Assembly: GCA_046761065.1 (NCBI GenBank)
Contig: JBHIFL010000076.1
Span: 1-19,002, forward strand
Reading direction: 5' to 3'
DNA from: Candidatus Heimdallarchaeota archaeon
GTDB lineage: Archaea > Asgardarchaeota > Wukongarchaeia > Wukongarchaeales > JBHIFL01
Length of the DNA stretch: 19,002 nt
Below the pieces are notes generated by a model. That model did not search any database. It saw only the letters and a program-made list of their open reading frames with translations, and was not told where the DNA came from. Shown here in pieces: positions 924 through 15,159 of this stretch (position 1 is the first letter of the stretch; every line of letters starts with the position of its first letter). Both the position numbers and the translations under genes were made by a program.

Positions 924-1180
924 AGTTTGTCCTACAAATGGAATATAATTAAAATTTGATTCTCTAAACCTACCAATGAAAACAAATCAATATAAATCCA
1001 GCCTTCTGATAACGATCAAGGATCAAATAAGAGCAGCCTCTGAAGAGAGGAATTATCACACTCACAATGCTATCGTGTTTGGGTGAATACCGGGTCACAA
1101 ACTTGAATTCATCAGACTTGCTGTAATAATAGTGTTTGATTGCATCTGAAATCCGATTGGTGAGTGGAGGAACGAAAAGC

Positions 1181-1900
1181 GTGGGACTTAAGGAGATCGA
1201 CCGAAAAATAAGAAAACGTGCAAAAATGAAAGAACTCAAAGCAAAAATGTTGGTAGACGAGTTAAAACTGATGGCAGAGAACACAAAGAGCCTTATTGAA
1301 CAAATGGAAGCTCTTGAGAAGAAGTGGGAGAAAGAGATAAAGCAATCACCTGAACTCGCCCAACAGATCTCGAAGGTGCGAGCACAGCTTGGACTTCCCG
1401 AAAGAGCGGGGGTATTCAAAAGAAAGGTTGCACCTGGAATTATGGAGCGTCTAACTGGGCATGGTTCATATTTTGCGCAATTAGGTATCGAAATTTTAGA
1501 AATTGCAAAAGAAAAAAAGGAAGAGACCGGGGGTCTGATCTCATTCGCTGAACTTATCCTCTTGATTAATAAACGGAATCCCGGATGGGTCTTCGCTCCC
1601 CGTGATGTGATTCGAGCAGTTGAACTCCTCGAGAAGGAAAAGTTGATCCCTGGAATTAGAACCTTGCCTTCACAGATGAAAATGATAGAATTTTTCCCTG
1701 TTTCTCTGACAGACGACGAACAGCACGTCCTTAATCTCGCATCCAAGGCAGGTTGGATCACTTTGGAAGAGTTAATCACCCACGGATGGAGTAAAGAACG
1801 CGCTAAACGTGCCCTGAACTCATTACAAGCTAGTGGGATTGCACGCGAAGATAAAACGTACGCAGAAGGAATACGTTACTTCTTTCCAGGATTTGGATGA
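1181..1900 (+). CDS. vps22: ESCRT-II subunit Vps22/SNF8 (EAP30 / Vps22-Vps36 family), tandem winged-helix
   Basis: Colinear resemblance to eukaryotic SNF8: KWEKEIKQSPEL, YFAQLGIEILEI...TGGLISFAEL, DVIRAVELL, PVSLTDDEQHVLNLASKAGWITLEEL..GWSKERAKRALNSL..GIARED...YFFP. GTG start at 1181 chosen because GGAGG lies at 1166-1170 (the ORF track extends to 1136). Confidence 0.92.
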   Translation: MGLKEIDRKIRKRAKMKELKAKMLVDELKLMAENTKSLIEQMEALEKKWEKEIKQSPELAQQISKVRAQLGLPERAGVFKRKVAPGIMERLTGHGSYFAQLGIEILEIAKEKKEETGGLISFAELILLINKRNPGWVFAPRDVIRAVELLEKEKLIPGIRTLPSQMKMIEFFPVSLTDDEQHVLNLASKAGWITLEELITHGWSKERAKRALNSLQASGIAREDKTYAEGIRYFFPGFG

Positions 1901-2028
1901 TTGAAATGTGGATCGTGATAGTTACTCTCCCATTGGGGGCTCCTTGACCATAGAAGATGCTGTGTCATATGATTTGCTCCAAAACCCCATTATTAAGGAA
2001 TTGAGAACTCTCTAAAGGGACGTAAAGA

Positions 2029-3156
2029 ATGATTAAAGTTGCCTATTATATCTCTGACTACGGTTGGGGACATGCAGCGAGAAGTATTTGTATTATTGAG
2101 AAACTCTTGGAATACGAGCCCGAGTTAAGGGTAATAGTTTGTACGAAACAGCCCATGCCATTCCTTGAAGCCGCGTTGTCAAACATAATAGACATGAGTT
2201 ATGAGCAGGAGCAAGTTTCCTTTCATCCAATTCAGAACGATGTCGGCTTTGTCAGTCATGAGATTACAGGTCAAGTTGATTTAGTTGCGACTTGTCACAA
2301 AGTAAACCCTTGGGTTTATTCATGGAATGATTACTTACGTAGTGAGTACAAATTCCTGAAACGTCAGAAAGTTGACATGATCATTTCAGACATCCCTCCT
2401 CAACCGTTTCTCCTCGCAGAAAAACTCAAGTGCCCAGGTATCGCGATAACTAACTTTAGTTGGGTAGATCAATACCCTAAACATCATTTCCCTCAAGCAC
2501 TCCTTGAACGTTTACGGGAGGCCTATGCAAAAGCGACGTTGGCTTTTGTCCTCCCATTTAATTTTGAGCTAGAGGTCTTTCGATCTAGGGTACAAACTCC
2601 ATTGGTCGCTCGTAACCCCACCCGGACCCCCACTGAACTACGCCAGGAGCTAGGCATCGAATCCCACCAATTTCTTGTGTATATAGGAGTGGGACTCAGC
2701 GTCTCTAACCCATTTGTATTCGAAACAGTGGCGGCAGTAGTTGCAGCTAGGAAGGACGAAATTGTCTTTTTGGCATCTGGGAAAATGACCGCATCGCAAG
2801 AAAATGTGTATAAAGTGCCGCTCGATGATCCAAATGGTCAAGATTTTATAGCCTGTAGTGATCTTGCGCTACTTAAACCCGCGTATAGTTCAGTTGCGGA
2901 AGCAATCCGTTCCAAGACGCCTATTCTATCCTATAATATAGCTCAATCACGCGAGGGGTATCTCATTGAACATCAAATAATTACATTAGGATTTGCTCAA
3001 GCCATTTCGAGACGCGAATTTAATACTGGAGAGTGGATAAAGAAAATAGACATACAAGACGATTTACGGAAAAACTATGCCCAAATTCCTCCAAGGTTTC
3101 AACACCAGGGAGAAACCTTCGTAGCAGCACAAATCCTTAAGTTATTAGAGAATTGA
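2029..3156 (+). CDS. GT-B fold glycosyltransferase-like protein (MurG/MJ1255-related; resembles the N-terminal GT-like domain of plant L-arabinokinase)
   Basis: N-terminal YYISDYGWGHAARS, VDMIISDIPPQPFLLA, ITNFSW, and the nucleotide-sugar-binding-like segment DFIACSDLALLKPAYSSVAEAI. Confidence 0.75.
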   Translation: MIKVAYYISDYGWGHAARSICIIEKLLEYEPELRVIVCTKQPMPFLEAALSNIIDMSYEQEQVSFHPIQNDVGFVSHEITGQVDLVATCHKVNPWVYSWNDYLRSEYKFLKRQKVDMIISDIPPQPFLLAEKLKCPGIAITNFSWVDQYPKHHFPQALLERLREAYAKATLAFVLPFNFELEVFRSRVQTPLVARNPTRTPTELRQELGIESHQFLVYIGVGLSVSNPFVFETVAAVVAARKDEIVFLASGKMTASQENVYKVPLDDPNGQDFIACSDLALLKPAYSSVAEAIRSKTPILSYNIAQSREGYLIEHQIITLGFAQAISRREFNTGEWIKKIDIQDDLRKNYAQIPPRFQHQGETFVAAQILKLLEN

Positions 3157-3233
3157 ACGGTCTTTACGGACTTCTTTGGGTCTTCAGCGGATTTTTTAAG
3201 CCCCGAATTGTCTGTTTATGGGTAAAATTGCTT

Positions 3234-3953
3234 CTAGAAGTGAAATAATACTGTTATCTCACCTTTTCCTACCCATTCCGCGAGGTTGCGTGTCACCAGC
3301 CGTCTCAAAATCTCCTGGAGCTCCTCTTGGGGGAGGGAACTCCAAATCTCGCAAGCATTGGCCAGTTCAAAGAGGGAAACTAACTCTCGTCCCGTTTGAA
3401 GTGCCCATTCATAGATGATTTCGCTCCATTCTTCTAGCACTTTCCAGTATATTCGAAGGCGAGTTTTTCTTTCATCCCACCACGCCCCAAAATCCCGGTC
3501 GATAAGGTTCTGCCCAACTAGTTGCATCTGGTCCATACTCAGCTTCTTCTTGATTAGACGATTGGAAAACGGAAACTCCTTTCGGATCTCGAGCAGATTC
3601 AGAATATGGGCTGCTTTGAATTCTGCAAATTCGAGCAAGAAATCCCCCCAAGCAGAACCCCAACTCTGGAGCTGAGCTTGATCTGTTGGAGTCACATACA
3701 TCCATGGCTTTTCCACCCAACTGGGGAGGATGTCTTGCAGCCTTGCGACTTTTAGGGCTTTCTTTTCTACCTCGACTGGTCTCAATTCGATTTTAAGACG
3801 CTCAAGGTCTCTTTCTAGTGCCGTGAGTTGTGTATCTATAACAGGTTCCGTCTTTCCACGGTCCTGCATTTCAGATACAGAACCATTGTTTGCATGTATT
3901 TTCGGCTCATGCTTTTTCTCTTTTTCTGGCTGCTTCCGTCCTTTTACTGTCAT
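3234..3953 (-). CDS. vps25: ESCRT-II subunit Vps25 with N-terminal charged/coiled-coil extension
   Basis: PSWVEKPWMYVTP (PPxY-like Vps22/36-binding segment), QLQSWGSAWGDFLLEF, PFSNRLIKKKLS, AWWDERKTRLRIYWKVLEEWSEIIYEW, SLFEL match Vps25. GAGGGGG ribosome-binding site upstream of ATG 3953. Confidence 0.92.
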   Translation of the reverse strand: MTVKGRKQPEKEKKHEPKIHANNGSVSEMQDRGKTEPVIDTQLTALERDLERLKIELRPVEVEKKALKVARLQDILPSWVEKPWMYVTPTDQAQLQSWGSAWGDFLLEFAEFKAAHILNLLEIRKEFPFSNRLIKKKLSMDQMQLVGQNLIDRDFGAWWDERKTRLRIYWKVLEEWSEIIYEWALQTGRELVSLFELANACEIWSSLPQEELQEILRRLVTRNLAEWVGKGEITVLFHF

Positions 3954-3975
3954 GAGACCCCCCTCGGTTGATAAT

Positions 3976-5136
3976 TCATTCCACGGCGAATTGTTTTTGC
4001 CAGTCTTCGTAGGAAATTAGTTCTTGCGGACTTACACTAGGCTTGATCCTTTGGAGTGAGGTTAAAAAATCCTGCTTTGTGACTGGCCTGACTTTTGAAG
4101 TTGCATCTTTAAGGAGATCACTCTCATCAAGTTCTCGTAAGGGTACCATGATCGCTTCTCGACAAATTAATGCAATATCAGCACCTGAAAAGCCTACAGT
4201 CCATTCGGCTAATTGATCAAAATCTACAGAGTCATTTATTTCGACTCCTTTTGTGTGAATTCGAAAGACCGCTGCCCTCGCCTCTTTTTCCGGTAGCGGC
4301 ACGTAGACGCGCTTCTCAAAGCGACGACGCATGGCAATATCTAACTGCTGAGGCAAGTTTGTCGCACCAATAATTACTAACCGATCCGTTTTTTTGCTGA
4401 GAATTCCATCAACCGCTTGCATCAGTTGTGTCTTCACACGCCGCACCGAATCATGTTCGTTTGTTCCTCTTGCTCCTGTCAGCGCATCTACTTCGTCGAA
4501 AAACACAATAGAGGGTTGTTTCTCACGAGCCTGATCAAAGAGGGTCTTGACAAGCCTTTCGGACTCCCCCAACCATTTACTCATGATGGAGGCCGCACTA
4601 ACATTGAAAAATGTGGCTTCACATTCGCTTGCCACTGCTTTCGCCAATAAGGTCTTCCCACAGCCAGGAGGCCCAAAGAGTAAGATCCCCTTCCAAGGGG
4701 TCCTAGCTCCTTGGAAAAGGTCAGGACGCATTATGGGCCAGATAATCGCTTCCCTCAACGCTTGTTTTGCTGTCTGAAGGTTTGCAACATCTTCCCACTT
4801 GATTTCAGGTTTCTCGGTGATAATCGTGTCTGCAATCGCTTGTTCTAATCCCCCAACTTCCTCGTCTTCTTCCCCCTTCGCTTCACCTCGTCCGCGAGAA
4901 ACTGTACGTGTTGGACGCTTTTGCAGGTCTTTGACCCGGGAGATATATTCCTTGGCCTTATTGTAATACATCTGTTTCAAATCAGGGTTGTCTGTGAAGT
5001 TGATCATCTTCTGTAGGATTTCAATAGCTCGTACATAATGGATAATGGCCTCTTTACGTTTCCCTGCCCGATCAGCTTGGACTGCTCGGCGGGCATATAT
5101 ACTTACGTACTCATAGAGTTTCCCTGTAGAACTCAT
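3976..5136 (-). CDS. vps4: Vps4 AAA+ ATPase with N-terminal MIT domain
   Basis: MIT helices (ARRAVQADRAGKRKEAIIHYVRAIEIL...KAKEYISRVKDL), KPEIKWEDVANL..AKQALREAII.P, PWKGILLFGPPGCGKT (Walker A), SKWLGESERLVK, FFDEVD (Walker B), GATNLP..LD.AMRRRFEKR, and the Vps4_C tail KPSVSPQELISYEDW. Likely start ATG 5136 (track 5145 GTG). Probably co-transcribed with vps25 (22-bp gap). Confidence 0.95.
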   Translation of the reverse strand: MSSTGKLYEYVSIYARRAVQADRAGKRKEAIIHYVRAIEILQKMINFTDNPDLKQMYYNKAKEYISRVKDLQKRPTRTVSRGRGEAKGEEDEEVGGLEQAIADTIITEKPEIKWEDVANLQTAKQALREAIIWPIMRPDLFQGARTPWKGILLFGPPGCGKTLLAKAVASECEATFFNVSAASIMSKWLGESERLVKTLFDQAREKQPSIVFFDEVDALTGARGTNEHDSVRRVKTQLMQAVDGILSKKTDRLVIIGATNLPQQLDIAMRRRFEKRVYVPLPEKEARAAVFRIHTKGVEINDSVDFDQLAEWTVGFSGADIALICREAIMVPLRELDESDLLKDATSKVRPVTKQDFLTSLQRIKPSVSPQELISYEDWQKQFAVE

Positions 5137-5343
5137 GCACCGCACCTACTCTAGTTGTTCCAGTTTAGCTAAAAAAACATTTGCTAAGGATGCCCGATCA
5201 ACCAGTTTGACGACCGAATAGGACAACATGAGCCCATAATCACTACTTACTTAGGCGAATTCTGTAGATCAGAAGATTCGATCTTTGAAATGCTCTCTCA
5301 TTATATCCAAGACGCATGAAATGCTTCTGTATGAACAATTGGG

Positions 5344-5350
5344 TTTATAA
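5344..5350 (+). promoter_or_regulatory. Candidate archaeal TATA box in the divergent vps4 / ESCRT-III intergenic region
   Basis: TTTATAA about 110 nt upstream of the ESCRT-III ATG at 5459, which has a strong AGGAGG ribosome-binding site. Short motif only. Confidence 0.35.
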
Positions 5351-5458
5351 GTTACATCATCCCTCTACTTCTTGATGAATTAATTGTGGTTTATGGGAGT
5401 CTACGAGTTTGAGATTAATAGATTCTTTGATGCCATTAATTTAAGGAGGTCTCTCTAG

Positions 5459-6067
5459 ATGGCATTTGGAAAATTCTTGGATTGGCTCAGAGGTGGACGA
5501 AGCCCACGTCAAATGATTGTTCGATTAAAAATGATTAGCCGCCGAATGGATCGCCAACACCGCAAGTTACGGAATAATGAAACGAAACTAAAGAATGAAC
5601 TGCGCCAGTCTGTAACAAAAGGCGATATGGAAGCGGCTAGACTATATGCGGGGGATGTGGTCCGATCCCGGAAGATGGCCTTAGGGTGTCAACGCTTGAG
5701 TTCACGAATTAACACAATTGTCTTCAAACTCGAGCAAGCCCAAGCCACTGAAGAGATTGCTCGGGACCTCCACAGTTTGGTTGGCGCCTTAGTTATGATT
5801 AATCAAACCCTTCAGATCCCCCAACTCACTGAAACCCTCGAACAGATGGAAATTGAGATGGGGGAAATCGATGTATCATCAGAAACAATTGGAGAGTCCT
5901 TTGAAGGCTTAATGGAAGCCGAGGTGGAACAAAGCGAAATTGACAAAGTTCTGGGGGAGGTCTTGACCGAGGAAGAGATTGCTGCGGCACATGGCCTCCC
6001 AACCCCGGATGTGAAAGCCACAGAGATCGCGAAAGAATTGGAAAAGCTGAAGAAAGGGGAGGATTAG
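5459..6067 (+). CDS. ESCRT-III subunit, Vps2/Vps24/Vps46 (CHMP1-like) class
   Basis: N-terminal amphipathic helix MAFGKFLDWLRG; basic hairpin with KGDMEAARLYAGDVVRSRK...RLSSRINTIVFKL (CHMP1/Did2-like); acidic C-terminal half; terminal MIM1-like helix EIAKELEKLKK. Confidence 0.92.
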   Translation: MAFGKFLDWLRGGRSPRQMIVRLKMISRRMDRQHRKLRNNETKLKNELRQSVTKGDMEAARLYAGDVVRSRKMALGCQRLSSRINTIVFKLEQAQATEEIARDLHSLVGALVMINQTLQIPQLTETLEQMEIEMGEIDVSSETIGESFEGLMEAEVEQSEIDKVLGEVLTEEEIAAAHGLPTPDVKATEIAKELEKLKKGED

Positions 6068-6091
6068 CAGGGCGAAAAGGAGGGCATAACA

Positions 6092-8758
6092 GTGGAGGCG
6101 TCTCATTTGGAACTGGGCCGCCCCCTCACTGATGGAGTCAGAGCCGCTCTTTCAGTAGTCAAGCGGACCCAGCCTAAAACACCATTAGAATTCTTGGATT
6201 TTGCAGTCCTTCAGCGGATGCTAGCTGAGATCTTACAGGATCCAGCTTGGAAGCAAGAAGCTGTCGCCTCTTTAGAAAAGGTTCTTCCCTCTCAAAAAGA
6301 AGATGGGGCCTTCATATATTCAGACCAAGTCCCCCATGAGGAGATGACCCTCCAAGCTGTCGAACGTCTTATGTTACTCTCAAGGTTTGAGGAACTCGTT
6401 AAAGAACCTATACAGAAGGCATTGCATTTCCTTGCCTCCTCGGCGGATAACCGTCTTTCCAAGCTTGCAAAGGCATATTTAGCACTCCTTGACCAAGAAT
6501 CCCCCTACTCACCACTCAAAGAGGCAATTCAGGGATTGAAAAGAGAAGAAGCCGTCAACGTTCTGACAATCCTTCATGTTGCTTCGAAGGATCCCGCCTA
6601 CTTAACTGAAGCACGCACTCTTCTTAATGGAACCAAAGAGGACACCCAATCCCTCCTTGAGATTCTCGTTTGGAAAAATTCTGGATATTCTGTCGACTTC
6701 TACCCCAAAGAATTATCAACCCGAATGAGACTTGCCCGCTCTTTAGCTTTAGACGCCCCTCCCTTTGAATTGGCAGGGGTGTTGGGCTATGTCATGGGAG
6801 AACAACACCGGGGGTTCGCTGCAAGTGTTACCTCCGCCCTTGGTGATTTTTCACCTTTTATTGATGAGAAAATCGATCCAACTCATTCGATCACAGGAGA
6901 TTCCATTGTCCTAGGCGCCCGAGGAGCAGTCCACCGAGAAGTTGATGGGCTGCTCTACTTAGGGCGAGTAACGGAACATGCCCCCGAAGAGGATAAATTT
7001 GGCTACGCCATTCAAGTGGACGCGACCTTTCCTCATGTGATCTTGATCGCCGGCATGCGCGGGAGTGGGAAATCATACACGCTCGGGGTTCTTGCTGAGG
7101 AACTGGCCCGAACAGATATTGGGATCGGCGTCATCATTGTGGATCCTCTCGGGGTTTTCTGGAGTATGAAACTCCCCAATTCAGACGCTGGGGAACGGAA
7201 ACTTATCGAAAAATGGCACCTTGTTCCAAAAGGCCATCCCGAGAAGGTCAGAGTCTTCATCCCCCTTGGTTATTATGACGATTACCCCGAAGAGAGCAAA
7301 GACGCCCCCTTTGCTATCGCCCCTACCGAATTAGAAGCTGGCGATTGGGCGTTCATGTTTAAAATTGATTTACAATCCCCCATGGGGTTGTTACTCCGGC
7401 AAGCTGTCGAACGGGTGCAGAAAGGGTATCAATCCGCCCGAGAAGGGACGACCATCCTGGTCCCAGGAAAAGGTGAAAAGTACACGATCCGGGACCTGAT
7501 CGAATGCATCTCAACCGATGTCGATCTGATCTCCAAGGAGCGGGGCTTTGCAAAAGCGACTCGCCGGGCCCTGGTTTCCCGGTTTATGCAGGTCCAGTCT
7601 TGGGGCCTGTTCAGCAGTGACCAAGCTACCCCCATCCATGAACTCTCCAAGCCAGGCCAGGTCTCCGTCATCGACGTTTCCTTCCTCTCCACGGTCGAGC
7701 CCGGCAGCGTTGCTTTAGTTGTGGGCCTCCTTGCCCGCCGGATCCTGCAAGAGCGCATTCGCATTGGACGTGCCGAAGAATCGGCTTACCTAACTGGAAC
7801 AACCCCGGTGGTGGACGCTTCCGCTCCTCCGATCCCTATCACCTGGGTGATGGTCGATGAAGCCCACATGCTGGTCCCAGAGGGAGAAAGGACCGCAGCT
7901 TCACAGCCGTTGATCGAGTTCGCGAAGCAGGGCCGAAAACCCGGCTGTGGGTTGATCCTAGCAACCCAGCGACCAGCTGCAACGAGTGACCAGGTGCTTT
8001 CGCAAGTGGATCTGGTCTTGTGCCATGCCCTCGTCTTAGAGGACGACCTCCGTGCGCTGTTGAAGCGGACGCCAGCGAAGTTACCCCAAGAGTTCAAGTC
8101 ACCAGATTTCATTCGAACGCTACCCGTCGGTGCGGCAATCGTTGCGGATCAAAGGACCCCGCTCAGGAGTCTGGTGGCACGAACGCGCCCGAGAACAAGT
8201 TCCCATGCAGGGAAAGCGGCGATCCCAAGTAAAATAATGCGAGCGGCGCCGGTTCCTGCCGTAGAACCCGTGCTAATTGAACAAAAACAGTGGGAGGAAA
8301 AAAAGGAGATACCAATGGACACGACTGCAGAATCGGTAGAAGTCCAGCCCTCTACTTTGACGGAGGCTCCCTCTATCGAACCTGAACTGATGGCAGGTTT
8401 GCCACCTACAACAGTGCTTCCTCCCGCAGTAATCCAAGGGTATCTTTCACGCAAACTCCTGTATGGATTTAAGGACTTCTTCTTTCCCCCTTCACGAGCT
8501 CACCGAACCACTGAGACGGGATTTATCGCCTTAGAAAAAGATCAGTGGCAGGCAGTTCAAGATGTTATTCGCAGTGAAGGGTGGGGCCTCAAATCCTCCA
8601 TGGAGCAGGAGGACATTGCGATTCAGTTATGGGAAACACTTAGAGGCAGATTGGGATTTGCGACAATCCAATCAGATGGAAGAGTTCAAGCGGTTTGGGC
8701 ATATGTCGGGACAGACTCTGCAGAGATTGCATTCCTCGAAGAATATAACAACCCCTGA
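6092..8758 (+). CDS. HerA/FtsK-superfamily (DUF87-type) P-loop ATPase, 888 aa, with N- and C-terminal accessory domains
   Basis: PHVILIAGMRGSGKSYTLGVLAEE (Walker A, 7052-7075), IIVDPLG, WVMVDEAH (Walker B), QGRKPGCGLILATQRPA (Arg finger and Q motif), DQVLSQ, RTLPVGAAIV. 24-bp gap from the upstream ESCRT-III gene; GGAGG upstream of the GTG start. Confidence 0.88.
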   Translation: MEASHLELGRPLTDGVRAALSVVKRTQPKTPLEFLDFAVLQRMLAEILQDPAWKQEAVASLEKVLPSQKEDGAFIYSDQVPHEEMTLQAVERLMLLSRFEELVKEPIQKALHFLASSADNRLSKLAKAYLALLDQESPYSPLKEAIQGLKREEAVNVLTILHVASKDPAYLTEARTLLNGTKEDTQSLLEILVWKNSGYSVDFYPKELSTRMRLARSLALDAPPFELAGVLGYVMGEQHRGFAASVTSALGDFSPFIDEKIDPTHSITGDSIVLGARGAVHREVDGLLYLGRVTEHAPEEDKFGYAIQVDATFPHVILIAGMRGSGKSYTLGVLAEELARTDIGIGVIIVDPLGVFWSMKLPNSDAGERKLIEKWHLVPKGHPEKVRVFIPLGYYDDYPEESKDAPFAIAPTELEAGDWAFMFKIDLQSPMGLLLRQAVERVQKGYQSAREGTTILVPGKGEKYTIRDLIECISTDVDLISKERGFAKATRRALVSRFMQVQSWGLFSSDQATPIHELSKPGQVSVIDVSFLSTVEPGSVALVVGLLARRILQERIRIGRAEESAYLTGTTPVVDASAPPIPITWVMVDEAHMLVPEGERTAASQPLIEFAKQGRKPGCGLILATQRPAATSDQVLSQVDLVLCHALVLEDDLRALLKRTPAKLPQEFKSPDFIRTLPVGAAIVADQRTPLRSLVARTRPRTSSHAGKAAIPSKIMRAAPVPAVEPVLIEQKQWEEKKEIPMDTTAESVEVQPSTLTEAPSIEPELMAGLPPTTVLPPAVIQGYLSRKLLYGFKDFFFPPSRAHRTTETGFIALEKDQWQAVQDVIRSEGWGLKSSMEQEDIAIQLWETLRGRLGFATIQSDGRVQAVWAYVGTDSAEIAFLEEYNNP

Positions 8759-8847
8759 GGGCGACTATAGCAGCTTCTTTGACCGACTTCAAAGGAAAGC
8801 CTAAAAAACGTTAAAAGGCAATTTACAAAAAAAAGGATGTAGCAATA

Positions 8848-9555
8848 TTGGGAATTAAAGGCTGGCTCTTTGGTGACAAGAAACGGAAACCGGCTGAAAC
8901 CGTTGCCGCCTTACGGGGCGTTATAAATCGATACATCATCCGTAGTAGAGCCCTTAGACGGCAAGCTGACGAACAAAGAGGCTTAGCACGCGATATGCTG
9001 CGAGATAGGAACAAAGTCGCCGCGAAACAGGCGCTACTCCGACGAACCCTCTATATGCGGGATTTAAATAATATCTATAACAAGACAATGAATATCCAGC
9101 GAGTGATTGATGCCATTCGGAGTGCTCAAGACAATATTGTGATGGCTGACGCCTTGAAAAGCGCCGATGAGGTAATACGAGTCTCCCTCAAGGATGCGGC
9201 GCCTGAGCGAATAGAAGAAATCATGCTGAGTGTAGAAGATAGCATCGAGCAAGTGGGCTACACTGATGAAATCTTAAGCGATACAACCATGAGCGAAGCT
9301 GGGTTGGAAGCTGACGAATTAACATCGCTAGATACGCAATTAGAAGAGTTGGAAGCGGAACTCCTATTGGAGGAGAAAGAGAAACTACCGACTCCTGCTG
9401 TCCGGGCATCACCTGTTCGAGCGGCAACAAAGGCGGCGAAGCCAACAGGTGTGGAAGAGCGAGGAGTACCTGAAGAAGAGGAAGAGATTAGCGAAGATGA
9501 ATTGAAACGCGAGATCGAAGAGATCAAGAAGGCTTTAGGGGAAAAAACCGATTAA
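8848..9555 (+). CDS. ESCRT-III subunit, Snf7/Vps20/Vps32/Vps60 class
   Basis: MGIKGWLFG membrane-anchor-like N-terminus, RNKVAAKQALLRRTLY (Snf7 'NK..AL.ALKRK..Y'), AIRSAQDNIVMADALK, ERIEEIM, LDTQLEELEAE, then LPTPAV (MIM2-like) and a terminal helix ELKREIEEIKKAL. TTG start; possible own TATA (TTAAAA 8811-8816). Confidence 0.92.
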   Translation: MGIKGWLFGDKKRKPAETVAALRGVINRYIIRSRALRRQADEQRGLARDMLRDRNKVAAKQALLRRTLYMRDLNNIYNKTMNIQRVIDAIRSAQDNIVMADALKSADEVIRVSLKDAAPERIEEIMLSVEDSIEQVGYTDEILSDTTMSEAGLEADELTSLDTQLEELEAELLLEEKEKLPTPAVRASPVRAATKAAKPTGVEERGVPEEEEEISEDELKREIEEIKKALGEKTD

Positions 9556-11003
9556 ATACCTCCAAACAGTTTTTCGAGCCCTGAACTAGGAGTTAATCGC
9601 TGCGGGGTGTTCTTGTTTAAGCTATTCAACTCCCCTTGGAGACGATCAAGGTCGGAAATAAGGCCCAACATGATTCGGGTATACTTTTCTGCAGGGATAT
9701 AGCCCCTGTCGAAGTTTTCATTAATGCCATGAAGAGTTCGCCATAACACGGAGATCTCTTTTTCGAGATCGTCTATGTGTTTTTTAGAGAAATATTCCGG
9801 TTTTGATTCATCTAGAATTTCCTTGTTACTTTTTAAGATGTCAAGCCAAAGATTTGATAAGCGTTCCCTATATATTTTAATCTCATTTTTTATTGAGGAC
9901 ATCTCAACTTGTGCAATCGGGATCTTCCCTGCGCTCCAAGAGCGTGCCATATCTAAAAAGACGAGCAGCTCATCTATGGCTTCTTTTTTACCTTGAATTT
10001 CACTTGTTCCCAGTGTTGTGGTAATAATCAGACGTAGATTTCTCTTTTTTTTCTTTTGGGATACCTGTAACACTTGGTTAAGGTGTAAATTCTTTACATG
10101 TTTGACTTTATGAAGCCTCCCCTTTTTCGTGATAAACGCAAGGCGAGTAGTGGTCAAACAGAGCGCGCCAACCCCATTATTTTTGCTACCATCTCCAGCA
10201 ATAAAATTAGAGACAGTTACTCGGGGTAAAACGATAATAGGGTACTCGAACGGATCCAAGGGAAAAATATCGTGAAGTTGGTCGAAGTAGTTGCGAAAAC
10301 GTTCAATTTTCTTGACTAATTGGGTCAAGTGATCCAAACTTTCATGTTCGGCATGTAGTCGCTCAGTTACCTTGGCTGAAACAATTTCAAGTTCCTTTTC
10401 TAGGGAAACAAGCCGTTGCATTTTTTTCCCGACCTTATTAAGAGACCGAAAAGGAGACCCAATGAGTTGAGAAGCCACAGCTTTTAGTTTATCGGCTAAG
10501 AGGGCAACTTGGCTAAAAACAAATCGCCCCTCTTCCGGTAGTACTTCATAAATGGCATCCATCTTTTCCTCCAATATAGCATAGTGATAATAGTTAGCTC
10601 GCCGTAGTTTCTCAATGCGTGTTCGGAGGTGTTCCCAATTAGCACAAAGCTTTACAAATTGGATTCCGATCCCTTTAAAAACTTTCAAGATTTCTAAAAA
10701 ACGAGAAACAACCTCCTTTTTCACTTGAGAAATGTTTTGAACTTCAACACTACAAGTGGGACAACGTCGCTGGATTTTTAAGCCCCTCCCAATCTTTTCA
10801 CTATTACATATCATACAGGATAACTTCCCCTTTCTCCCTTGGGAGATTTTAAAAGACCCGCATGCCTGGCAGACTGTTAACTCCCGCCTAATAGTTTCTA
10901 CACATTGAAAACATAGTGTTAAACCACATTTTACACAAACAAGGGTTACTCCTTCGGCACCACACAACGCGCAATACAAAATTTCGCCCATATCACCAGC
11001 CAA
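9552..11003 (-). CDS. Multidomain protein: six CxxC Zn-binding pairs (B-box-like plus Zn ribbons), coiled coil, PH/GRAM-like domain, C-terminal helical hairpin resembling the ESCRT-I core
   Basis: CALC, CVKC, CFQC, CQAC, CMIC and CPTC pairs; long heptad-rich helices; GALCLTTTRLAF...LHLNQVLQV...LRLII (PH-like); TLHGINENFDRGYIPAEKYTRIMLGL near the C-terminus. Start is TTG 11003 or ATG 10991. Its stop overlaps the Snf7-class stop (TTAA 9552-9555). Confidence 0.7.
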   Translation of the reverse strand: MAGDMGEILYCALCGAEGVTLVCVKCGLTLCFQCVETIRRELTVCQACGSFKISQGRKGKLSCMICNSEKIGRGLKIQRRCPTCSVEVQNISQVKKEVVSRFLEILKVFKGIGIQFVKLCANWEHLRTRIEKLRRANYYHYAILEEKMDAIYEVLPEEGRFVFSQVALLADKLKAVASQLIGSPFRSLNKVGKKMQRLVSLEKELEIVSAKVTERLHAEHESLDHLTQLVKKIERFRNYFDQLHDIFPLDPFEYPIIVLPRVTVSNFIAGDGSKNNGVGALCLTTTRLAFITKKGRLHKVKHVKNLHLNQVLQVSQKKKKRNLRLIITTTLGTSEIQGKKEAIDELLVFLDMARSWSAGKIPIAQVEMSSIKNEIKIYRERLSNLWLDILKSNKEILDESKPEYFSKKHIDDLEKEISVLWRTLHGINENFDRGYIPAEKYTRIMLGLISDLDRLQGELNSLNKNTPQRLTPSSGLEKLFGGI

Positions 11004-11230
11004 GCATAGTCCCCCATTTCACAAAGTGAGATCTAAGTGGGCTAAACAAGAAGAAAAAGGGATGTGTTATATGGATATATTTTTGAATCCTAGAAGGGGA
11101 ATGGGTGTCTTATGGGGTTTTGGAGAAGAAATGTGCCATGAAGCACTATTTCTAGCATTATCCAGGTTAGTCAACGACTTGAGGGTTTGCTTACATATTA
11201 AGCTATGGTTCTGAAAAAAAATAACCTCGT

Positions 11231-12262
11231 TTATGAGGTTCTATGTTGATACCATATAATGGTCTTTAGCAAACCTTGGTCGAGAATTGTTGTCGGTTCC
11301 CATTTGAGCAGAGTTCTAGCTTTGGTGATATCAGGGCATCTTCTCTTTGGGTCGTCTATCGGGAGTGGGTGGAACTCAATTGGAGAGCTGGAGTTGGTAA
11401 GTTTTTTGATTTTCTCGGCAAGATCAATGATATGGGTTTCCGCATCATTACCGAGGTTGATCACCTCATGTTTCGCTTCCGGCATAGACACTGCTTTGAG
11501 AATGCCTTCGACTTCGTCTGTTACATAAGTGAAGGAACGCGTTTGAGTGCCGTCGCCAAAGACAGTGATTGGCATATTTGAAAGCGCCTGTTCAATAAAA
11601 TTTGGAACCACTCGGCCATAAATATCCCCGGCTCGCATCCTAGGACCATAAGTATTGAAGATTCGGACAATTCGACTGTCTATTCCATGTTGAATCTGAT
11701 ACGCGATTACGAAGGCTTCCCCTGCTCGTTTCGCCTCATCATAACAAGACCGGGGCCCGACCGGATTAACATTCCCGTAGTAGCTCTCTTTTGTAGGTAT
11801 TCGCTTTAGGTCGGGATCTCCGTAGATTTCACTACTTGAAGTATACAGAAACCGAGCGTGGTGTTTGCGGGCAATTCCAAGGGCGATCCAGATTCCCAGA
11901 GTGTTGGATTTTAAAATTTGAATGGGGAATTTGGCAAACTCGAATGGGCTAGCCCGGCTCGCCAAGTGTAGGATGATATGAATTGGTTCATCGAGAAATA
12001 ACGGTTCAGAAATATCGTGATTAATATATTCGAAGGTTTCAGATGGGATAAGGTGAGTGATATTAGACTGAAGCCCGGAAGCTAAATTATCCACGCAAAG
12101 AACCCTGGCATTCTGGGTGACCAGGACATCACAGATCCAGGAACCTAGGAAGCCAGCACCTCCAGTGACAAGAACCGTCTGATCTTCGAAGGAGATTGCA
12201 TTATTATTAAGCCGCTGGAGGATTTGCTCCACACCATCATGGATAGGATCCTTTTCTTTCAT
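11231..12262 (-). CDS. UDP-glucuronate decarboxylase (UDP-xylose synthase) family SDR
   Basis: VTGGAGFLGS, HLASRASP, SSSEIYGDP, Y.GNVNPVGPRSCYDEAKR, RIFNTYGPRM, GDGTQTRSF.YV.D, LPIDDPKRRCPDITKA. Confidence 0.92.
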   Translation of the reverse strand: MKEKDPIHDGVEQILQRLNNNAISFEDQTVLVTGGAGFLGSWICDVLVTQNARVLCVDNLASGLQSNITHLIPSETFEYINHDISEPLFLDEPIHIILHLASRASPFEFAKFPIQILKSNTLGIWIALGIARKHHARFLYTSSSEIYGDPDLKRIPTKESYYGNVNPVGPRSCYDEAKRAGEAFVIAYQIQHGIDSRIVRIFNTYGPRMRAGDIYGRVVPNFIEQALSNMPITVFGDGTQTRSFTYVTDEVEGILKAVSMPEAKHEVINLGNDAETHIIDLAEKIKKLTNSSSPIEFHPLPIDDPKRRCPDITKARTLLKWEPTTILDQGLLKTIIWYQHRTS

Positions 12263-12387
12263 GATATATCTATCCTAGACATTTTTACGGCATTCAGGGC
12301 TTTGGCTCAAACTGATCTTGTCTAAAACCTCTTGCTTTCAGGAAATCTTTTTCCGTCTATTTCTGTTTTTCGAGAATGCCCTCCCAA

Positions 12388-13617
12388 TTAGGACGAAATA
12401 TGATGATCGACAAGTTTTTCAACAATTTGTTGGAAAGAGACCTCCTTCTGCCAACCAAGTACTTTTTCGGCTAATTCGGTATTACTGCAATACCATCGTG
12501 GATCAGCTTGGCGTGGGATATCCGTACGATAAGTTACGGGGCGTCCCGTTATTTCTTCCAAAATGGTAAAGAGGTCAAGGATGGATGCTGCGTTTTCAGG
12601 GCCTCCACCAATATTGAAAGCCTTTCCTGCGACAATGTCGGGCTCTGTGGCTTGTTTGTTCATTATTATTCTAATCATCTTAAGCACATCCCAGCCATGT
12701 ACTGGATCTCGTACCTGTTTCCCGTCCCCAAAGACGGTTACTTGATTGCCTTGACACACTTGTTTCGTTAAAAAGTCGACCCAACCATGCGCTAAGATGG
12801 AATATTGGTCAAAATACATCTGACCCGTCATAGTGGTTGGTCTGATCTCGGTGGTTATGAGATTATAGCTGTTGTTCAAATCAAGGGTCAGGAGCCCCTC
12901 AAAGGTCTTGTGAACTCCATATTGCTGGCACGTATCCAGTCGAAAGTACTCTGAGACGCCATGATCTCGCAGCCAGGGGATGGTAGGGACCCATTGGGTA
13001 TCTGTTTCTATCAGCTCAACACGTCTTACGGGTGGATCTTCGGAAGCACCTGGATTATACCAAATTGAACCGGGAATTGCTCGGGGATCCACCCACAAGG
13101 AATCTTCGATCATCCCATAAACTTTGTTCGTGGTCATGGCAATGAGTTTCGGTACATTCTCGCTCAATGCGGCCTCTTTTATGGCCTCAACTTGATGTTC
13201 CAGAGGCAATTCCGTATGACGGACGCCAGCTTTCTCGATTAAATAGTCTACAAGAATTCGGGCCAAAACAGCCGCCGAATAGGCATTGTTCATAAAATCT
13301 GGATAAGGAAATCGCATAGAGATTATGGCAGAGGCCGCAGCACTGGTGTGTACAATATATTTTATGACTCCGTTACGAGGGTGTAAGAGTATCTGGCTTG
13401 TCTCGTAGTGATTCAGGTCAGCTAGATTGATCTGAAGGCGAGGGTTCTGGAGTGCTATCAATTCGCGGTAACGTTGGTCACTGTATTCTTTGAATAAATT
13501 GTCACACCCATGGATCTGAAAGGTTTCATACTCTTCGCACTCCAACAGATATCGAGCCAAATTACTCCCGATATAGCCACAAATTCCGGTGATGAAGATA
13601 ATTTCATCTTTCTCCAT
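12388..13617 (-). CDS. NAD-dependent epimerase/dehydratase, CDP-paratose/tyvelose 2-epimerase (RfbE)-like, with insertions
   Basis: ITGICGYIGS, TTNKVYG, YGVHK (YxxxK), GWVDF, GDGKQVRDPVH, AFNIGGGPENAASI, RQADPRWY. Confidence 0.8.
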   Translation of the reverse strand: MEKDEIIFITGICGYIGSNLARYLLECEEYETFQIHGCDNLFKEYSDQRYRELIALQNPRLQINLADLNHYETSQILLHPRNGVIKYIVHTSAAASAIISMRFPYPDFMNNAYSAAVLARILVDYLIEKAGVRHTELPLEHQVEAIKEAALSENVPKLIAMTTNKVYGMIEDSLWVDPRAIPGSIWYNPGASEDPPVRRVELIETDTQWVPTIPWLRDHGVSEYFRLDTCQQYGVHKTFEGLLTLDLNNSYNLITTEIRPTTMTGQMYFDQYSILAHGWVDFLTKQVCQGNQVTVFGDGKQVRDPVHGWDVLKMIRIIMNKQATEPDIVAGKAFNIGGGPENAASILDLFTILEEITGRPVTYRTDIPRQADPRWYCSNTELAEKVLGWQKEVSFQQIVEKLVDHHISS

Positions 13618-13733
13618 TTATTACAACCAACCTTTTTTAGCAACGAATCTATCAAGAGTTGAACGATTTTGGGCTCGGTTCAGTGACTGAATTGAATGTG
13701 ATCATGCGCCCATTATTGGATCTCCCTAAAACA

Positions 13734-14255
13734 TCATAATCGAGGTTGGGATTTCAACATAATTTCAGTTAAAATCTCAAATAGCTCGCTCACATTCTCG
13801 CCCGTCTTAGCTGACGTCTCAATATATTTGAGCCCATTGCTAGCCGCATATGTTGTCGCTTCTCCAATAGAGACAGAGCGATCTGCTTCGAGATCAAGCT
13901 TGTTTCCAACAATTATGTAAGGAATTGCCCCACAATTGATATAAACTTCATTGTACCAATAGTCGAGTTTTTCGAAAGAACTCCTCTGAGTTATGTCAAA
14001 GACGATAAACGCCCCATTTGCTTTGCGGTAATAAAGTGGACGGAGTGGTCCAAAACTCTCCTGCCCCGCGGTATCATATAACAGCAGCTTAACATTGATC
14101 TTGTCGATTCGGACATTTTTCACAAAAAAATCTACACCTAAGGTCGGAATATAAGTTTCCGAGAACTGACCCACAGCGAAGCGCCGGATCAATGAGGTTT
14201 TCCCGACAGCTTCCTTCCCTAAGGAAATGGTCTTGAACTCATATTCATGGGTCAT
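13734..14255 (-). CDS. Rab-like Ras-superfamily small GTPase
   Basis: G1 GKEAVGKT, G2 YIPTLGVDF, G3 LYDTAGQE, YYRKANGAFIVFDIT..SF, G4 GNKLDL, G5 ETSAKTGENV. No C-terminal Cys prenylation motif. Likely start ATG 14255 (track 14264). Confidence 0.95.
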   Translation of the reverse strand: MTHEYEFKTISLGKEAVGKTSLIRRFAVGQFSETYIPTLGVDFFVKNVRIDKINVKLLLYDTAGQESFGPLRPLYYRKANGAFIVFDITQRSSFEKLDYWYNEVYINCGAIPYIIVGNKLDLEADRSVSIGEATTYAASNGLKYIETSAKTGENVSELFEILTEIMLKSQPRL

Positions 14256-15030
14256 TCCAATCACAGGACCTTATCTAAAGAAGGGTTCGTTTTTCGATTC
14301 AAAGGTTTTTCTCGGCTTATTATCTGAAATAAGTTGCCACATACACTTCGATCTTAAACGTTTTTTTACATTTTGCTGTTTTCTCTCAAAAAAAGTTTCT
14401 TCATAAAAGCTTAAATGTCTTTATTTGCTAAAAATCCCAATTAAAAATGGAGATTCGAGTTATAACAAAAGTACACAAGTTGTTTTTTGCGTATTCCGTC
14501 TATACCCTTCAAGAATGATCATCCAATATGTCATTCTCTAAAATATACAAGACTTTACCTCAAAGAGTTCTTAGGATCACCATTCTGGCAACCACATTGT
14601 TCTTTCATATTAGGAACTGCTATTAGAGAGAATTCTCACCTACTTCAACTTTTACTTAAGATTTGTTTCGCAATATTTTTTAAAATTTTTCTACGCTTCA
14701 ACTACTTCTTAGATCGAGTGCTGATAACTTCCTTTTCAAGGACCGTTTTCAAACATACTAATAATAGCTCTATCCTCCACATCGTTGAGTCAAATAATAT
14801 TGCCATTACATACACTTCAAAATAATTTATCCTAAACAAGGAATCTCCTTTCTTTTTCCCACAGCATCCCTCCCTCTATTTCTAGTAAAACGGTTTACTA
14901 TCTTTATTTAGTTATCTTCAGGTCATTAGTCTCAAAAAAATCTTTTTCTCCGATTTTTTCGTTTGTCTCAGCACTTTTTCCCTCCTCACCACTTTGGTCA
15001 ATAACGAATTGTTTATTTTGAATGAAAACC

Positions 15031-15072: not shown

Positions 15073-15159
15073 AAGAACTTCCTTAGTCTTTAATATGTAT
15101 AGGCGAGAACCGAGCGTTAAGATAGAAGTTTAATAAAAAAATCGTATGAGGAATAACCG

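Follow-up and report, generated by a model that had tools for sequence, protein, structure and literature searches.

A HerA-clade ATPase encoded between the two ESCRT-III genes of a Heimdallarchaeota archaeon is a probable partner of the ESCRT-III machinery

Introduction

Described Asgard ESCRT-III/Vps4 loci encode Vps25, Vps4, ESCRT-IIIA and ESCRT-IIIB, with vps4 divergent and the two ESCRT-III genes as neighbours (Hatano 2022, PMC9192718; Makarova 2024, PMC10936438; Souza 2025, PMC11804906). The texts of these three papers do not mention a HerA-type ATPase. Vps4 is a ring ATPase encoded with the ESCRT-III genes. FtsK and SpoIIIE, ring dsDNA pumps at a closing membrane neck, belong to the same superfamily as HerA, and the nuclease NurA is a separate protein that docks on the entry face of HerA. 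Archaeal HerA, from HerA-NurA(-Mre11-Rad50) end resection, is represented by structures from Sulfolobus solfataricus (4d2i) and Thermococcus kodakarensis (9x1l and 9x1m); in the latter protein R466/K467 have a trans-acting role and T325/R328/K332 form the DNA-contact helix (PMC12977600). In antiphage HerA modules (Sir2-HerA/Nezha, DUF4297-HerA, TdpAB, DndH) a HerA-type ring likewise bears a partner domain or protein at its entry face.

Here we analyse a stretch of 19,002 nt ("the window"; contig JBHIFL010000076.1, positions 1 to 19,002, assembly GCA_046761065.1) from a Candidatus Heimdallarchaeota archaeon. In this locus and in seven other families, unlike in the canonical locus, a HerA-type ATPase gene, with or without a helper gene, lies between or beside the ESCRT-III genes. 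The gene is not discussed in the ESCRT papers that we searched, consistent with an initial annotation of this DNA that had suggested an undescribed module.

Results

The ATPase gene lies between the only two ESCRT-III genes of the genome

Three co-oriented ORFs fill positions 5459-9555: ESCRT-IIIA, an 888-aa HerA-clade ATPase and ESCRT-IIIB, with gaps of 24 and 89 nt. The set is divergent from a vps4-vps25 pair; ORF coordinates and Pfam matches bear out this arrangement as initially annotated. The features are:

1136-1900, + strand: ESCRT-II Vps22/36-like gene (context; Pfam EAP30, 1.4e-21)
3234-3953, - strand: ESCRT-II Vps25-like gene (context; Pfam ESCRT-II, 2e-17)
3976-5145, - strand: Vps4, MIT + AAA + Vps4_C (Pfam AAA 4.5e-41, MIT 4.7e-10, Vps4_C 2.7e-08)
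5146-5458, no strand: divergent intergenic region; AAGGAGG ribosome-binding site, read from the sequence, at 5444-5450 ahead of the ESCRT-IIIA ATG
5459-6067, + strand: ESCRT-IIIA, A-type, CHMP1/2/3 / Vps2/24/46-like, 202 aa (Pfam Snf7, 2.9e-18)
6068-6091, + strand: 24-nt gap; AAAAGGAGGG at 6075-6084, 7 nt 5' of the ATPase GTG start
6092-8758, + strand: HerA-clade ATPase gene, 888 aa, GTG start (Pfam DUF87 7.7e-15, HerA_C 7.7e-07)
8759-8847, + strand: 89-nt gap; TTAAAA at 8811-8816
8848-9555, + strand: ESCRT-IIIB, B-type, Snf7/CHMP4-7-like, 235 aa, TTG start (Pfam Snf7, 2.9e-17)
9552-11003, - strand: 483-aa unknown protein, convergent with ESCRT-IIIB (homologues by tblastn)

The best PDB matches of ESCRT-IIIA are CHMP1B (5e-12), CHMP3, CHMP2A and Vps24, and ESCRT-IIIB matches ESCRT-IIIB of Heimdallarchaeota AB_125 (5.2e-33) and also Snf7, so that the assignment of the upstream gene to the Vps2/24/46 class and of the downstream gene to the Snf7 class holds; they are the only Snf7-family genes in the genome. 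The ATPase start has a Shine-Dalgarno-like site ahead of it, and an N-terminal 'GRPL' motif that aligns across orthologues supports the GTG as that start. The TTAAAA element, located where the annotation had placed it, may be an internal promoter serving ESCRT-IIIB. A scan for terminator-like hairpins found none in the 24-nt or the 89-nt gap. As had been noted, NurA, Mre11 and Rad50 have no match among the main window ORFs of at least 96 aa that were scanned, whereas two HerA-NurA pairs sit elsewhere in the same genome, away from the ESCRT locus. Families f2, f7 and Jordarchaeia carry homologues of the 483-aa protein at the corresponding flank of the cluster (loci L027, L029-L034, L047 and L052; tblastn 1e-13 to 1e-25). 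Glycosyltransferase and sugar epimerase genes are also nearby in the window.

The motor belongs to the HerA clade

Within the ATPase, alignments and structural models delimit the following parts:

6092-6886, + strand: N-terminal all-alpha domain, residues 1-265, 12 helices, alpha/alpha-toroid-like (AF2 pLDDT 84.9, pTM 0.81)
6887-7036, + strand: short beta segment, residues 266-315, in the HerA HAS-barrel position (strands 271-274, 287-293, 306-310)
7037-8212, + strand: RecA-like HerA motor with helical insertion, residues 316-707 (DUF87 + HerA_C; Foldseek; VIA)
7052-7075, + strand: Walker A, G321-S328 (GMRGSGKS; ortholog alignment)
7856-7861, + strand: Walker B, D589-E590 (invariant in 84/84)
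7931-7939, + strand: G614-R615-K616 (HMMER alignment to the trans-acting R466/K467 of T. kodakarensis HerA)
8213-8413, + strand: disordered acidic/Pro-rich linker, residues 708-774 (pLDDT about 29)
8414-8755, + strand: C-terminal alpha+beta domain, residues 775-888 (H-E-H-E-E-E-E-H; pLDDT 60-84)

The motor matches T. kodakarensis HerA in Foldseek (7e-17), and VIA Z scores are highest for S. solfataricus HerA (32.6) and the T. kodakarensis HerA-NurA-dsDNA complex (29.1), followed by antiphage HerA (about 28; Z 24-28 across the antiphage modules); they are lower for VirB4 (25.5), TrwB (21), FtsK (18.7) and EccC/EssC (about 18). As modelled, the motor is HerA-clade, not FtsK-like or VirB4-like, and of the HerA/FtsK-type label initially given only the first half stands. 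In Walker A, six residues (G321, G324, S325, G326, K327, S328) do not vary among 21 orthologues, and five of them (all but S325) are kept in 82 of 84 family members. R615, which with K616 corresponds to R466-K467 of T. kodakarensis HerA, is kept in 84 of 84, and T625/Q626 and R699/R701 are also invariant in the ATPase alignments. A conserved helix of the helical insertion (T490...R497) recalls the T325/R328/K332 helix, a putative mapping. Neither a signal peptide nor a TM segment was found in the ATPase, which is acidic overall (pI 5.4). The best explanation is that the gene encodes a ring ATPase that is soluble and catalytically competent and belongs to the HerA clade within the FtsK-HerA superfamily, and by analogy with HerA a hexameric ring with a dsDNA-sized channel would be expected.

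The ATPase nonetheless differs from HerA in several respects. It scores 63 bits against the 970-bit equivalog cut-off, falls in a separate, strongly supported clade, and carries an extra linker and C-terminal domain. The annotation had recognised no HAS barrel; the AlphaFold model does place a short beta segment (271-310) in that position behind the 265-aa toroid domain, albeit only as a reduced version, and when the model is aligned structurally with Sulfolobus HerA, the match starts at residue 255 of the model and residue 27 of the chain. Unlike FtsK, the ATPase lacks a membrane domain at its N terminus, and neither its N- nor its C-terminal domain contains a recognised DNA-binding domain (wHTH or FtsK gamma winged helix). 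Unlike Vps4, it has no detected MIT domain, and its fold class is unrelated, being HerA/FtsK ASCE instead of AAA+. The C-terminal domain has no Pfam match and only TM <0.5 in an Atlas search.

Such a motor could work on protein rather than DNA. It would then bind ESCRT-III filaments or cargo through the toroid or the C-terminal domain and spend ATP on organising, anchoring or remodelling the polymer alongside Vps4, as a scaffold or as a second motor for remodelling or assembly. We consider this rather unlikely. The gene does lie exactly between two polymer-subunit genes, with a coupled helper (8-14 nt overlap) added in several lineages; nothing outside the motor was recognised as a DNA-binding module; the superfamily relatives VirB4 and EccC/EssC power protein or pilus transport; and antiphage HerA rings are, by the titles of their structures, platforms for partner proteins. 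On the other hand, the closest structural neighbours (HerA, DndH, TdpA and antiphage HerA with DNA) all engage DNA, the neighbouring Vps4 with its MIT domain already covers ESCRT-III disassembly, and the linker, which varies in length and sequence among orthologues, shows no conserved MIM-like motif in the alignment.

The N-terminal domain has strong matches only in proteins of this type

Every fold match of the N-terminal domain is an alpha/alpha toroid (VIA: GH76, Z 12.6, a value that unrelated helical models also reach; alpha2-macroglobulin/complement TED, 11.4; terpene synthase, 10.0), at 7-14% sequence identity throughout. Proteins with this fold typically handle glycans, lipids or thioesters rather than bind DNA. 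A profile of the domain run against 1.84 bn representative proteins retrieved 12 clusters at E<1e-30, ten of which have it at the N terminus of 869-1017-aa proteins, while the other two, at 350 and 491 aa, look like fragments. The toroid might itself be the working part, a lipid-, isoprenoid- or glycan-binding or -modifying domain positioned at ESCRT-III sites by the hexameric motor, where it could for instance sense or change the make-up of the membrane or cell surface at necks. The uniform fold matches, the restriction of strong matches to proteins of this type, a conserved patch (W194, P205, R211, E237) and the nearby sugar-related genes speak for this idea; we nevertheless regard it as very unlikely, given the Z range and low identity just mentioned, the failure to identify a catalytic motif of any toroid enzyme family in the domain, and its cytoplasmic location.

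Linkage to ESCRT-III is conserved across Asgard families

A neighbourhood survey, which the initial annotation had proposed, covered 400 Asgard species genomes and assessed long-form orthologues for ESCRT-III neighbours. Long-form orthologues occur in eight families, and an ESCRT-III gene adjoins the ATPase gene in 26 of 29 assessable loci: f1 (1/1), f2 (2/2), f7 (4/4), Jordarchaeia (6/6), f24 (3/3), Helarchaeota-type (2/2), f32 (3/3) and Heimdallarchaeota-type f23, where the order ATPase-helper-ESCRT-IIIB is found in five of eight. In the remaining three Heimdall-type genomes no ESCRT-III gene was found beside the ATPase gene. In families other than f23, ESCRT-IIIA is directly upstream wherever that flank is present; two f7 loci are cut by contig ends, and their linkage is seen as ESCRT-IIIB downstream. 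The gene order is ESCRT-IIIA, ATPase, in some lineages a ~350-aa helper gene, and ESCRT-IIIB. One apparent ESCRT-III-ATPase fusion, in a single genome, was rejected as an N-run artefact.

Most Asgard lineages lack the ATPase yet retain ESCRT-III and Vps4 (presence is 1/135 in f9, a single weak, short match, 0/31 in f4 and 0/19 in f12), and in families without it the two ESCRT-III genes are directly adjacent (e.g. G025, G044, G045, G004). The ATPase is therefore dispensable for core ESCRT function. Thor has only a shorter, unlinked form; indeed, none of the shorter relatives (Thor, Thermoplasmatota, Methanofastidiosia, DPANN) shows ESCRT linkage.

Could the ATPase be unrelated to ESCRT, a HerA paralogue of the repair, defence or mobile-element type that entered the space between the ESCRT-III genes once and was then vertically inherited? 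The wider family, which also includes Hadarchaeota, occurs in unrelated, housekeeping-like contexts, linkage has been lost in some Heimdall-type genomes, GC3 is 0.60 in the motor part and 0.39-0.49 in the sequence on either side, and the pairing with a tightly coupled unknown partner gene downstream resembles two-gene HerA defence modules. Against this, same-strand adjacency and short gaps persist across eight families at 33-39% protein identity while other flanking genes differ, and linkage co-occurs with an N-terminal domain that is itself matched nowhere else. Phage matches were none and plasmid matches only distant DUF87 paralogues; PADLOC gave weak, generic HerA matches for the ATPase and none for the helper; and canonical HerA-NurA pairs are present elsewhere in the genome. 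Unlike antiphage HerA, the ATPase is fixed in a chromosomal ESCRT cluster across deep lineages, and no nuclease or NADase effector domain was recognised. We consider such a bystander origin quite unlikely. The linkage of the ATPase to ESCRT-III is not due to chance.

Discussion

The ATPase gene adjoins, or is enclosed by, the only two ESCRT-III genes of the genome, here and in at least seven other Asgard families, so that its product is probably a partner of the ESCRT-III machinery, and we think it likely that the association is functional. What it does there is a more tentative matter. The initial annotation had suggested DNA pumping, for clearance of the neck, loading of vesicles or transfer between cells. 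By homology, it could be a ring dsDNA translocase recruited to ESCRT-III necks, a reading that we hold to be possible, if somewhat short of probable. Its closest solved relatives in structure are without exception HerA-type rings that engage DNA, conservation extends to the catalytic and the trans-acting residues, and Asgard ESCRT-III proteins have been reported, in a preprint, to bind DNA/chromatin (10.1101/2021.11.29.470303). Points counted against this reading are the pI of 5.4, the lack of a recognised DNA-binding domain in the N- and C-terminal domains, the toroid fold, the patchy distribution, the possible ESCRT-IIIB promoter and the three unlinked Heimdall-type genomes. In addition, HerA-family rings of defence systems are mainly scaffolds or sensors for effectors, not long-range pumps.

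On our best explanation, the ATPase has become a conserved accessory part of the ESCRT-III operon in Asgard archaea, and it carries its own fused alpha/alpha-toroid domain in place of a separate NurA nuclease. As a DNA translocase, it would assemble as a hexamer and, having no membrane segment of its own, be brought to the membrane by contact with the ESCRT-III polymer, rather than by the FtsZ divisome as for FtsK, whose logic the proposal otherwise shares. ATP-driven movement of dsDNA through the central channel at an ESCRT-III-lined neck might then serve one of two ends: the neck would be freed of chromosomal DNA ahead of scission, or DNA would be packed into a bud, vesicle or protrusion. 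Vps4 would stay the ESCRT-III disassembly motor. ESCRT is a machinery that eukaryotes inherited, and this ATPase is probably an undescribed partner of it.

An ATPase gene is embedded between the two ESCRT-III genes

The locus comprises the following genes, in window coordinates:

1136-1900, + strand: EAP30 (Vps22/36-like, ESCRT-II), upstream of a glycosyltransferase gene
3234-3953, divergent from the ESCRT-III genes: Vps25, an ESCRT-II gene
3976-5145, divergent from the ESCRT-III genes: Vps4, with MIT, AAA and Vps4_C domains
5459-6067, + strand: ESCRT-IIIA, 202 aa; Pfam Snf7, 2.9e-18
6092-8758, + strand: the ATPase, 888 aa, GTG start; DUF87 "HerA central domain", 7.7e-15, plus HerA_C
8848-9555, + strand: ESCRT-IIIB, 235 aa, TTG start; Pfam Snf7, 2.9e-17
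9552-11003, - strand: a basic 483-aa protein (pI 9.3), convergent with ESCRT-IIIB

The initial annotation described three co-oriented genes separated by gaps of 24 and 89 nt and divergent from vps4-vps25, and both the ORF coordinates and the Pfam assignments agree with this description. We assigned the upstream Snf7 gene to the A type because its matches among solved structures are CHMP1B, CHMP3, CHMP2A and Vps24, and the downstream gene to the B type because it matches ESCRT-IIIB of Heimdallarchaeota AB_125 (5e-33) and Snf7; these are the Vps2/24/46 and Snf7 classes originally given. Since gene calls, classes, gaps and neighbours all match, the original observation stands as written. The two genes are the only Snf7-family genes in this genome (4.4 Mb, 91% complete), and the database proteins nearest to the ATPase carry a Hodarchaeota label. 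Families f2 (of the same taxonomic order as the window) and f7, and Jordarchaeia, keep homologues of the 483-aa protein, likewise at that edge of the ESCRT-III/ATPase cluster. A longer antisense ORF (970-1779) overlaps the EAP30 gene, and a gene for a Ras-family small GTPase (13734-14264, - strand, 5.6e-53) lies 4 kb past the ESCRT-III cluster.

An AAGGAGG site precedes the ATG of ESCRT-IIIA, and AAAAGGAGGG lies 7 nt before the GTG of the ATPase gene, inside the 24-nt gap. A terminator scan of both intergenic gaps found no hairpin. The TTAAAA sequence pointed out earlier is indeed present in the 89-nt gap, and ESCRT-IIIB may therefore have an internal promoter there. At orthologous loci, the gap between ESCRT-IIIA and the ATPase gene is 5-110 nt in most lineages, and the gene 3' of the ATPase gene overlaps it or starts within ~120 nt.

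Linkage to ESCRT-III genes across Asgard families

The ATPase protein served as query against 400 Asgard species genomes, and we inspected ~60 loci by tblastn and with local ESCRT-III HMMs. Long forms of the ATPase (E<1e-120, 870-1030 aa, N-terminal domain present) were found in eight families.

Long-form ATPase loci at which an ESCRT-III gene neighbours the ATPase gene, by family (taxon names in brackets are taken from contig titles)
f1 (the window's own family): 1/1
f2: 2/2
f7: 4/4
f18 (Jordarchaeia/Freyarchaeota): 6/6
f24: 3/3
f25 (Helarchaeota): 2/2
f32 ("Promethearchaeota H2M.176"): 3/3
f23 ("Heimdallarchaeota"): 5/8 assessable loci

The neighbourhood survey that the initial annotation had proposed thus places the ATPase gene beside ESCRT-III, co-oriented, at 26 of the 29 assessable long-form loci in eight families. 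Outside f23, ESCRT-IIIA is immediately 5' of the ATPase gene wherever that flank is present; two f7 loci (in genomes G138 and G017) are cut by contig ends, leaving only the downstream ESCRT-IIIB visible. The usual order in these seven families has vps4 divergent past ESCRT-IIIA, and ESCRT-IIIB 3' of the ATPase gene. Five of the eight assessable f23 genomes have the ATPase gene followed by a helper gene (described below), ESCRT-IIIB and a Cdc48-like gene; at the assessable loci of the other three, no ESCRT gene was found near the ATPase gene. Four further f23 loci end at contig edges and are outside the eight. The Cdc48-like gene of these Heimdall-type genomes encodes a two-domain AAA protein on the opposite strand after ESCRT-IIIB (L045:14245-16446, L061:10192-12036, L066:8718-10910), and no Vps4 gene was seen beside the ATPase locus in the same genomes.

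The ATPase gene is therefore a conserved, co-oriented and closely spaced member of an ESCRT-III operon. It could instead be a hitch-hiker, functionally unrelated to ESCRT, for which the three unlinked f23 genomes might speak; with the linkage recurring in eight families, we consider this quite unlikely.

In families lacking the ATPase, the two ESCRT-III genes directly adjoin (for example, in genomes G025, G044, G045, G004 and G084). Presence of the ATPase is 1/135 in f9 (a single weak, short match), 0/31 in f4, 0/19 in f12, 0/12 in f14 and 0/14 in f28. Because such ATPase-free families are common while Snf7 genes occur in 384 of the 400 genomes, the ATPase is an accessory rather than a core ESCRT component.

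Two contigs carrying long forms, at loci L049 (genome G145) and L076 (G119), are publicly titled "Deferrimicrobium" and "Bathyarchaeia", and their genomes fall within the Asgard phylum set; these public labels are probably wrong. L049 is a full vps4/ESCRT-IIIA/ATPase locus, and L076 has only the ATPase and helper genes. We also considered a 1169-aa in-frame ESCRT-III-ATPase fusion in genome G146 (L037:2167-5676, - strand, contig G146:C123), and rejected it: a stretch of N, read as X, bridges ESCRT-IIIA and the ATPase gene, so that six-frame tools report a single open frame with Snf7 and DUF87. The ESCRT-III-bearing N-terminal 220 residues of this frame have no long (642-2046 aa) match in a set of 5.8 billion proteins.

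A helper gene (c1), encoding an acidic protein of ~350 aa with no Pfam or PADLOC match, lies directly 3' of the ATPase gene in Jordarchaeia, f32 and Heimdall-type genomes (L031:7182-8249, - strand; L040:7896-8951, - strand; L044:11397-12488, + strand; and 18 more loci). It overlaps the ATPase gene in Jordarchaeia and f32, follows it at a distance of 6-250 nt in the Heimdall-type family, and is positioned between the ATPase gene and ESCRT-IIIB wherever ESCRT-IIIB is close by. A C-terminal D-P-x-L motif is invariant in the helper proteins. We did not find c1 in the window, and a profile search, run without a positive control, gave no match in the window's genome (G000) or in four others without c1 at the ATPase locus (G001, G002, G139 and G147).

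The motor is closest to HerA

An AlphaFold2 model of the ATPase, built from a 21-sequence alignment (pLDDT 80.9, pTM 0.72), has an all-alpha N-domain of 12 helices (residues 13-250), three short strands ahead of the motor (271-310), the motor itself (316-700), a disordered linker (708-773) and an alpha+beta C-domain (778-884).

Structural matches to the ATPase model (VIA Z)
Sulfolobus HerA, 4d2i: 32.6 (338 residues aligned, model residues 255-711)
Thermococcus HerA-NurA-dsDNA, 9x1m: 29.1
Antiphage HerA rings and DndH: 24-28
VirB4: 25.5
TrwB: 21
FtsK: 18.7 (range 18.1-18.7)
EccC: 18

The closest structures to the motor are thus HerA proper (Z 27-33). Walker A (G321-S328), Walker B (D589-E590), R615, T625/Q626 and R699/R701 are invariant across long forms, and the conserved motor residues, where tabulated, are kept by 82 or more of the 84 family members. 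In Thermococcus kodakarensis HerA, the residues aligned with R615-K616 are R466-K467, which reach over from the neighbouring protomer to contact the nucleotide phosphates (PMC12977600). A conserved T490...R497 helix, within a helical insertion, appears to resemble the DNA-contact helix of T. kodakarensis HerA (T325/R328/K332). Judged from sequence and model, the ATPase is a HerA-type motor with intact catalytic motifs, predicted to form a ring. It is acidic (pI 5.4) and lacks a membrane segment; no hydrophobic stretch lies outside the core beta-strands.

GC3 of the motor-encoding segment (window 6887-8212) is 0.60, versus 0.44 for the N-domain, 0.445 for the linker and C-domain, and 0.39-0.49 for neighbouring genes; recombination in the past, gene conversion or selection on composition could each account for this. 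The window ATPase is also on a rather long branch in the tree of motor cores.

A toroid-like N-terminal domain

The alignment with 4d2i begins at residue 27 of that chain, and in the ATPase a 265-aa alpha-helical domain precedes the three strands. This fused N-domain sits on the face corresponding to the NurA-binding side of HerA. Folded alone (pLDDT 84.9, pTM 0.81), it matched only alpha/alpha toroids: GH76 mannanases (Z 12.6), the alpha2-macroglobulin and complement thioester domains (Z 11.4) and a terpene synthase (Z 10.0); Foldseek matches were weak (7e-3). Since helical models can reach such Z scores by chance, we call the predicted domain toroid-like and assign it no activity. A lipid or glycan function centred on the toroid would fit the mannanase and terpene synthase matches; given how readily such scores arise, we regard it as very unlikely.

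A profile of the N-domain, searched against 1.84 billion representative proteins, matched only 12 clusters at E<1e-30. In ten of them the match is N-terminal in a protein of 869-1017 aa; the other two are shorter (350 and 491 aa) and fragment-like. Three matches (P0012, P0014 and P0005) are DUF87 homologues of the ATPase. The cluster positions and these three homologues suggest that the domain is confined to this type of ATPase.

We found no support for reading the N-domain as a series of MIT/TPR-like units that bind ESCRT-III tails, because its fold matches are all alpha/alpha toroids. Fold comparison revealed no MIT-like domain in the ATPase, and the linker is variable in the orthologue alignment, with no conserved short motif, including MIM-like motifs. 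The C-domain has no Pfam match, and its Atlas structure matches all have TM <0.5. The ATPase might nonetheless act on protein, as an ESCRT-III remodeller or scaffold; its place among ESCRT-III genes would suit such a role, the structural relatives of its motor point to DNA, and we judge the proposal fairly unlikely.

The wider motor family

The motor family also occurs in Thor/Hermod, Thermoplasmatota, Hadarchaeota, Methanofastidiosia, Thermococci and DPANN. Only the motor core (residues ~250-715, 34-47% identity) is common to these relatives, and in those scanned it begins near residue 90-120; the scanned members have other extensions, some a TrmB HTH and a Thermoplasmatota group DUF835. There are no ESCRT genes within 8 kb of the wider relatives, whose neighbours resemble unrelated housekeeping genes, and a screen of the contexts of non-Asgard and Thor relatives found no ESCRT, NurA or conjugation genes.

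In a quick maximum-likelihood tree of the motor core, the ATPase family was well separated, with a support of 99, from the other DUF87 paralogues that the genome encodes. Every Asgard family forms a tight clade, consistent with vertical descent within families. Long forms and a Thermoplasmatota clade are joined (support 93), with a weak backbone inside the group, and the Thermoplasmatota clade is perhaps nested inside the Asgard long forms. Proteins of this clade (L056, L058, L063, L065, L068-L075, L077, L079 and L109) have the same motor and are 1200-1650 aa long; the two members scanned (L058 and L073) have a C-terminal DUF835. This pattern may reflect a transfer between phyla in which a domain was replaced.

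Comparison with known systems

HerA has an N-terminal HAS beta-barrel that docks NurA, and NurA is encoded adjacently, often with Mre11-Rad50. The ATPase shares with HerA the FtsK-HerA RecA-like core, Walker A and B, and the trans-acting basic residue. Unlike HerA, it has no NurA, Mre11 or Rad50 gene among the scanned window ORFs, as the initial annotation had reported, and it scores only 63.1 bits against the NCBIfam HerA equivalog NF040819 (cut-off 970) and 44.1 against NF040937 (cut-off 800). We rejected a role as the repair HerA on the basis of that first score and of two HerA-NurA pairs elsewhere in the genome, where NurA genes on contigs C9 and C1 are each beside other DUF87 genes. In contrast to FtsK/SpoIIIE, the ATPase lacks an N-terminal membrane domain, having a toroid-like N terminus instead, and its motor is farther from FtsK (Z 18.1-18.7) than from HerA. 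As for VirB4, Ced and conjugative coupling ATPases, no type IV secretion, Ced or relaxase genes were found among the window ORFs, and the NCBIfam CedD (0.0022) and VirB4 (1.3e-4) matches are far under their cut-offs.

There is no sign that the ATPase gene is a mobile-element or defence gene. It has no phage matches, and its plasmid matches are distant DUF87 paralogues only. The best PADLOC match is mad8 (3.6e-20), generic HerA models being weak (1e-7 to 1e-14), and the window has no antiphage effector gene (Sir2, DUF4297 etc.).

Full-text searches on Asgard archaea or ESCRT-III with a HerA-like or DUF87 ATPase turned up no description of the arrangement. The text of Makarova 2024 (PMC10936438) mentions neither HerA nor FtsK, and its supplement, outside the Asgard part of the neighbourhood table, names HerA solely for crenarchaeal HerA-NurA neighbours. 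The synteny plot of Hatano 2022 (PMC9192718) colours only genes with Ub/ESCRT domains and leaves other genes undiscussed. The ATPase is absent, too, from Souza 2025 (PMC11804906), from a review of 2025 and from a structural-modelling survey of 2026.

A possible DNA pump at ESCRT-III-lined necks

We tentatively propose, at somewhat below even chances, that the ATPase forms hexamers which are brought to necks lined by ESCRT-III and translocate dsDNA there. A dsDNA translocase is the most economical reading because the close structural relatives all thread or grip dsDNA, and because Asgard ESCRT-III proteins are reported to bind DNA or chromatin (preprint 10.1101/2021.11.29.470303). The hexamer would dock at the neck and clear DNA from it, or load DNA, ahead of scission, and Vps4 would meanwhile recycle the ESCRT-III polymer. 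A broader proposition is possible though somewhat unlikely: a ring pump derived from HerA, present in Asgard archaea and also in their Hodarchaeales-type lineage, the one closest to eukaryotes, would dock on ESCRT-III and move DNA through necks. Such a pump would be an analogue of FtsK for ESCRT scission, or would load vesicles or protrusions with DNA that passes from cell to cell, and it would have been lost, or never inherited, en route to eukaryotes.

The ATPase defines a rare HerA subfamily, its N-domain profile having matched only proteins of this type. Since its members are soluble and expressible, ESCRT-III binding, DNA-stimulated ATPase activity and structure are open to direct study. 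ESCRT-III and Vps4 are among the clearest machinery passed from Asgard archaea to eukaryotes. A conserved second motor, from a DNA-handling family, between the ESCRT-III genes of several deep Asgard lineages is a concrete clue to the role of ESCRT: there may be a coupling in Asgard cells between membrane scission and the movement of DNA, whether in neck clearance, vesicle loading or transfer.
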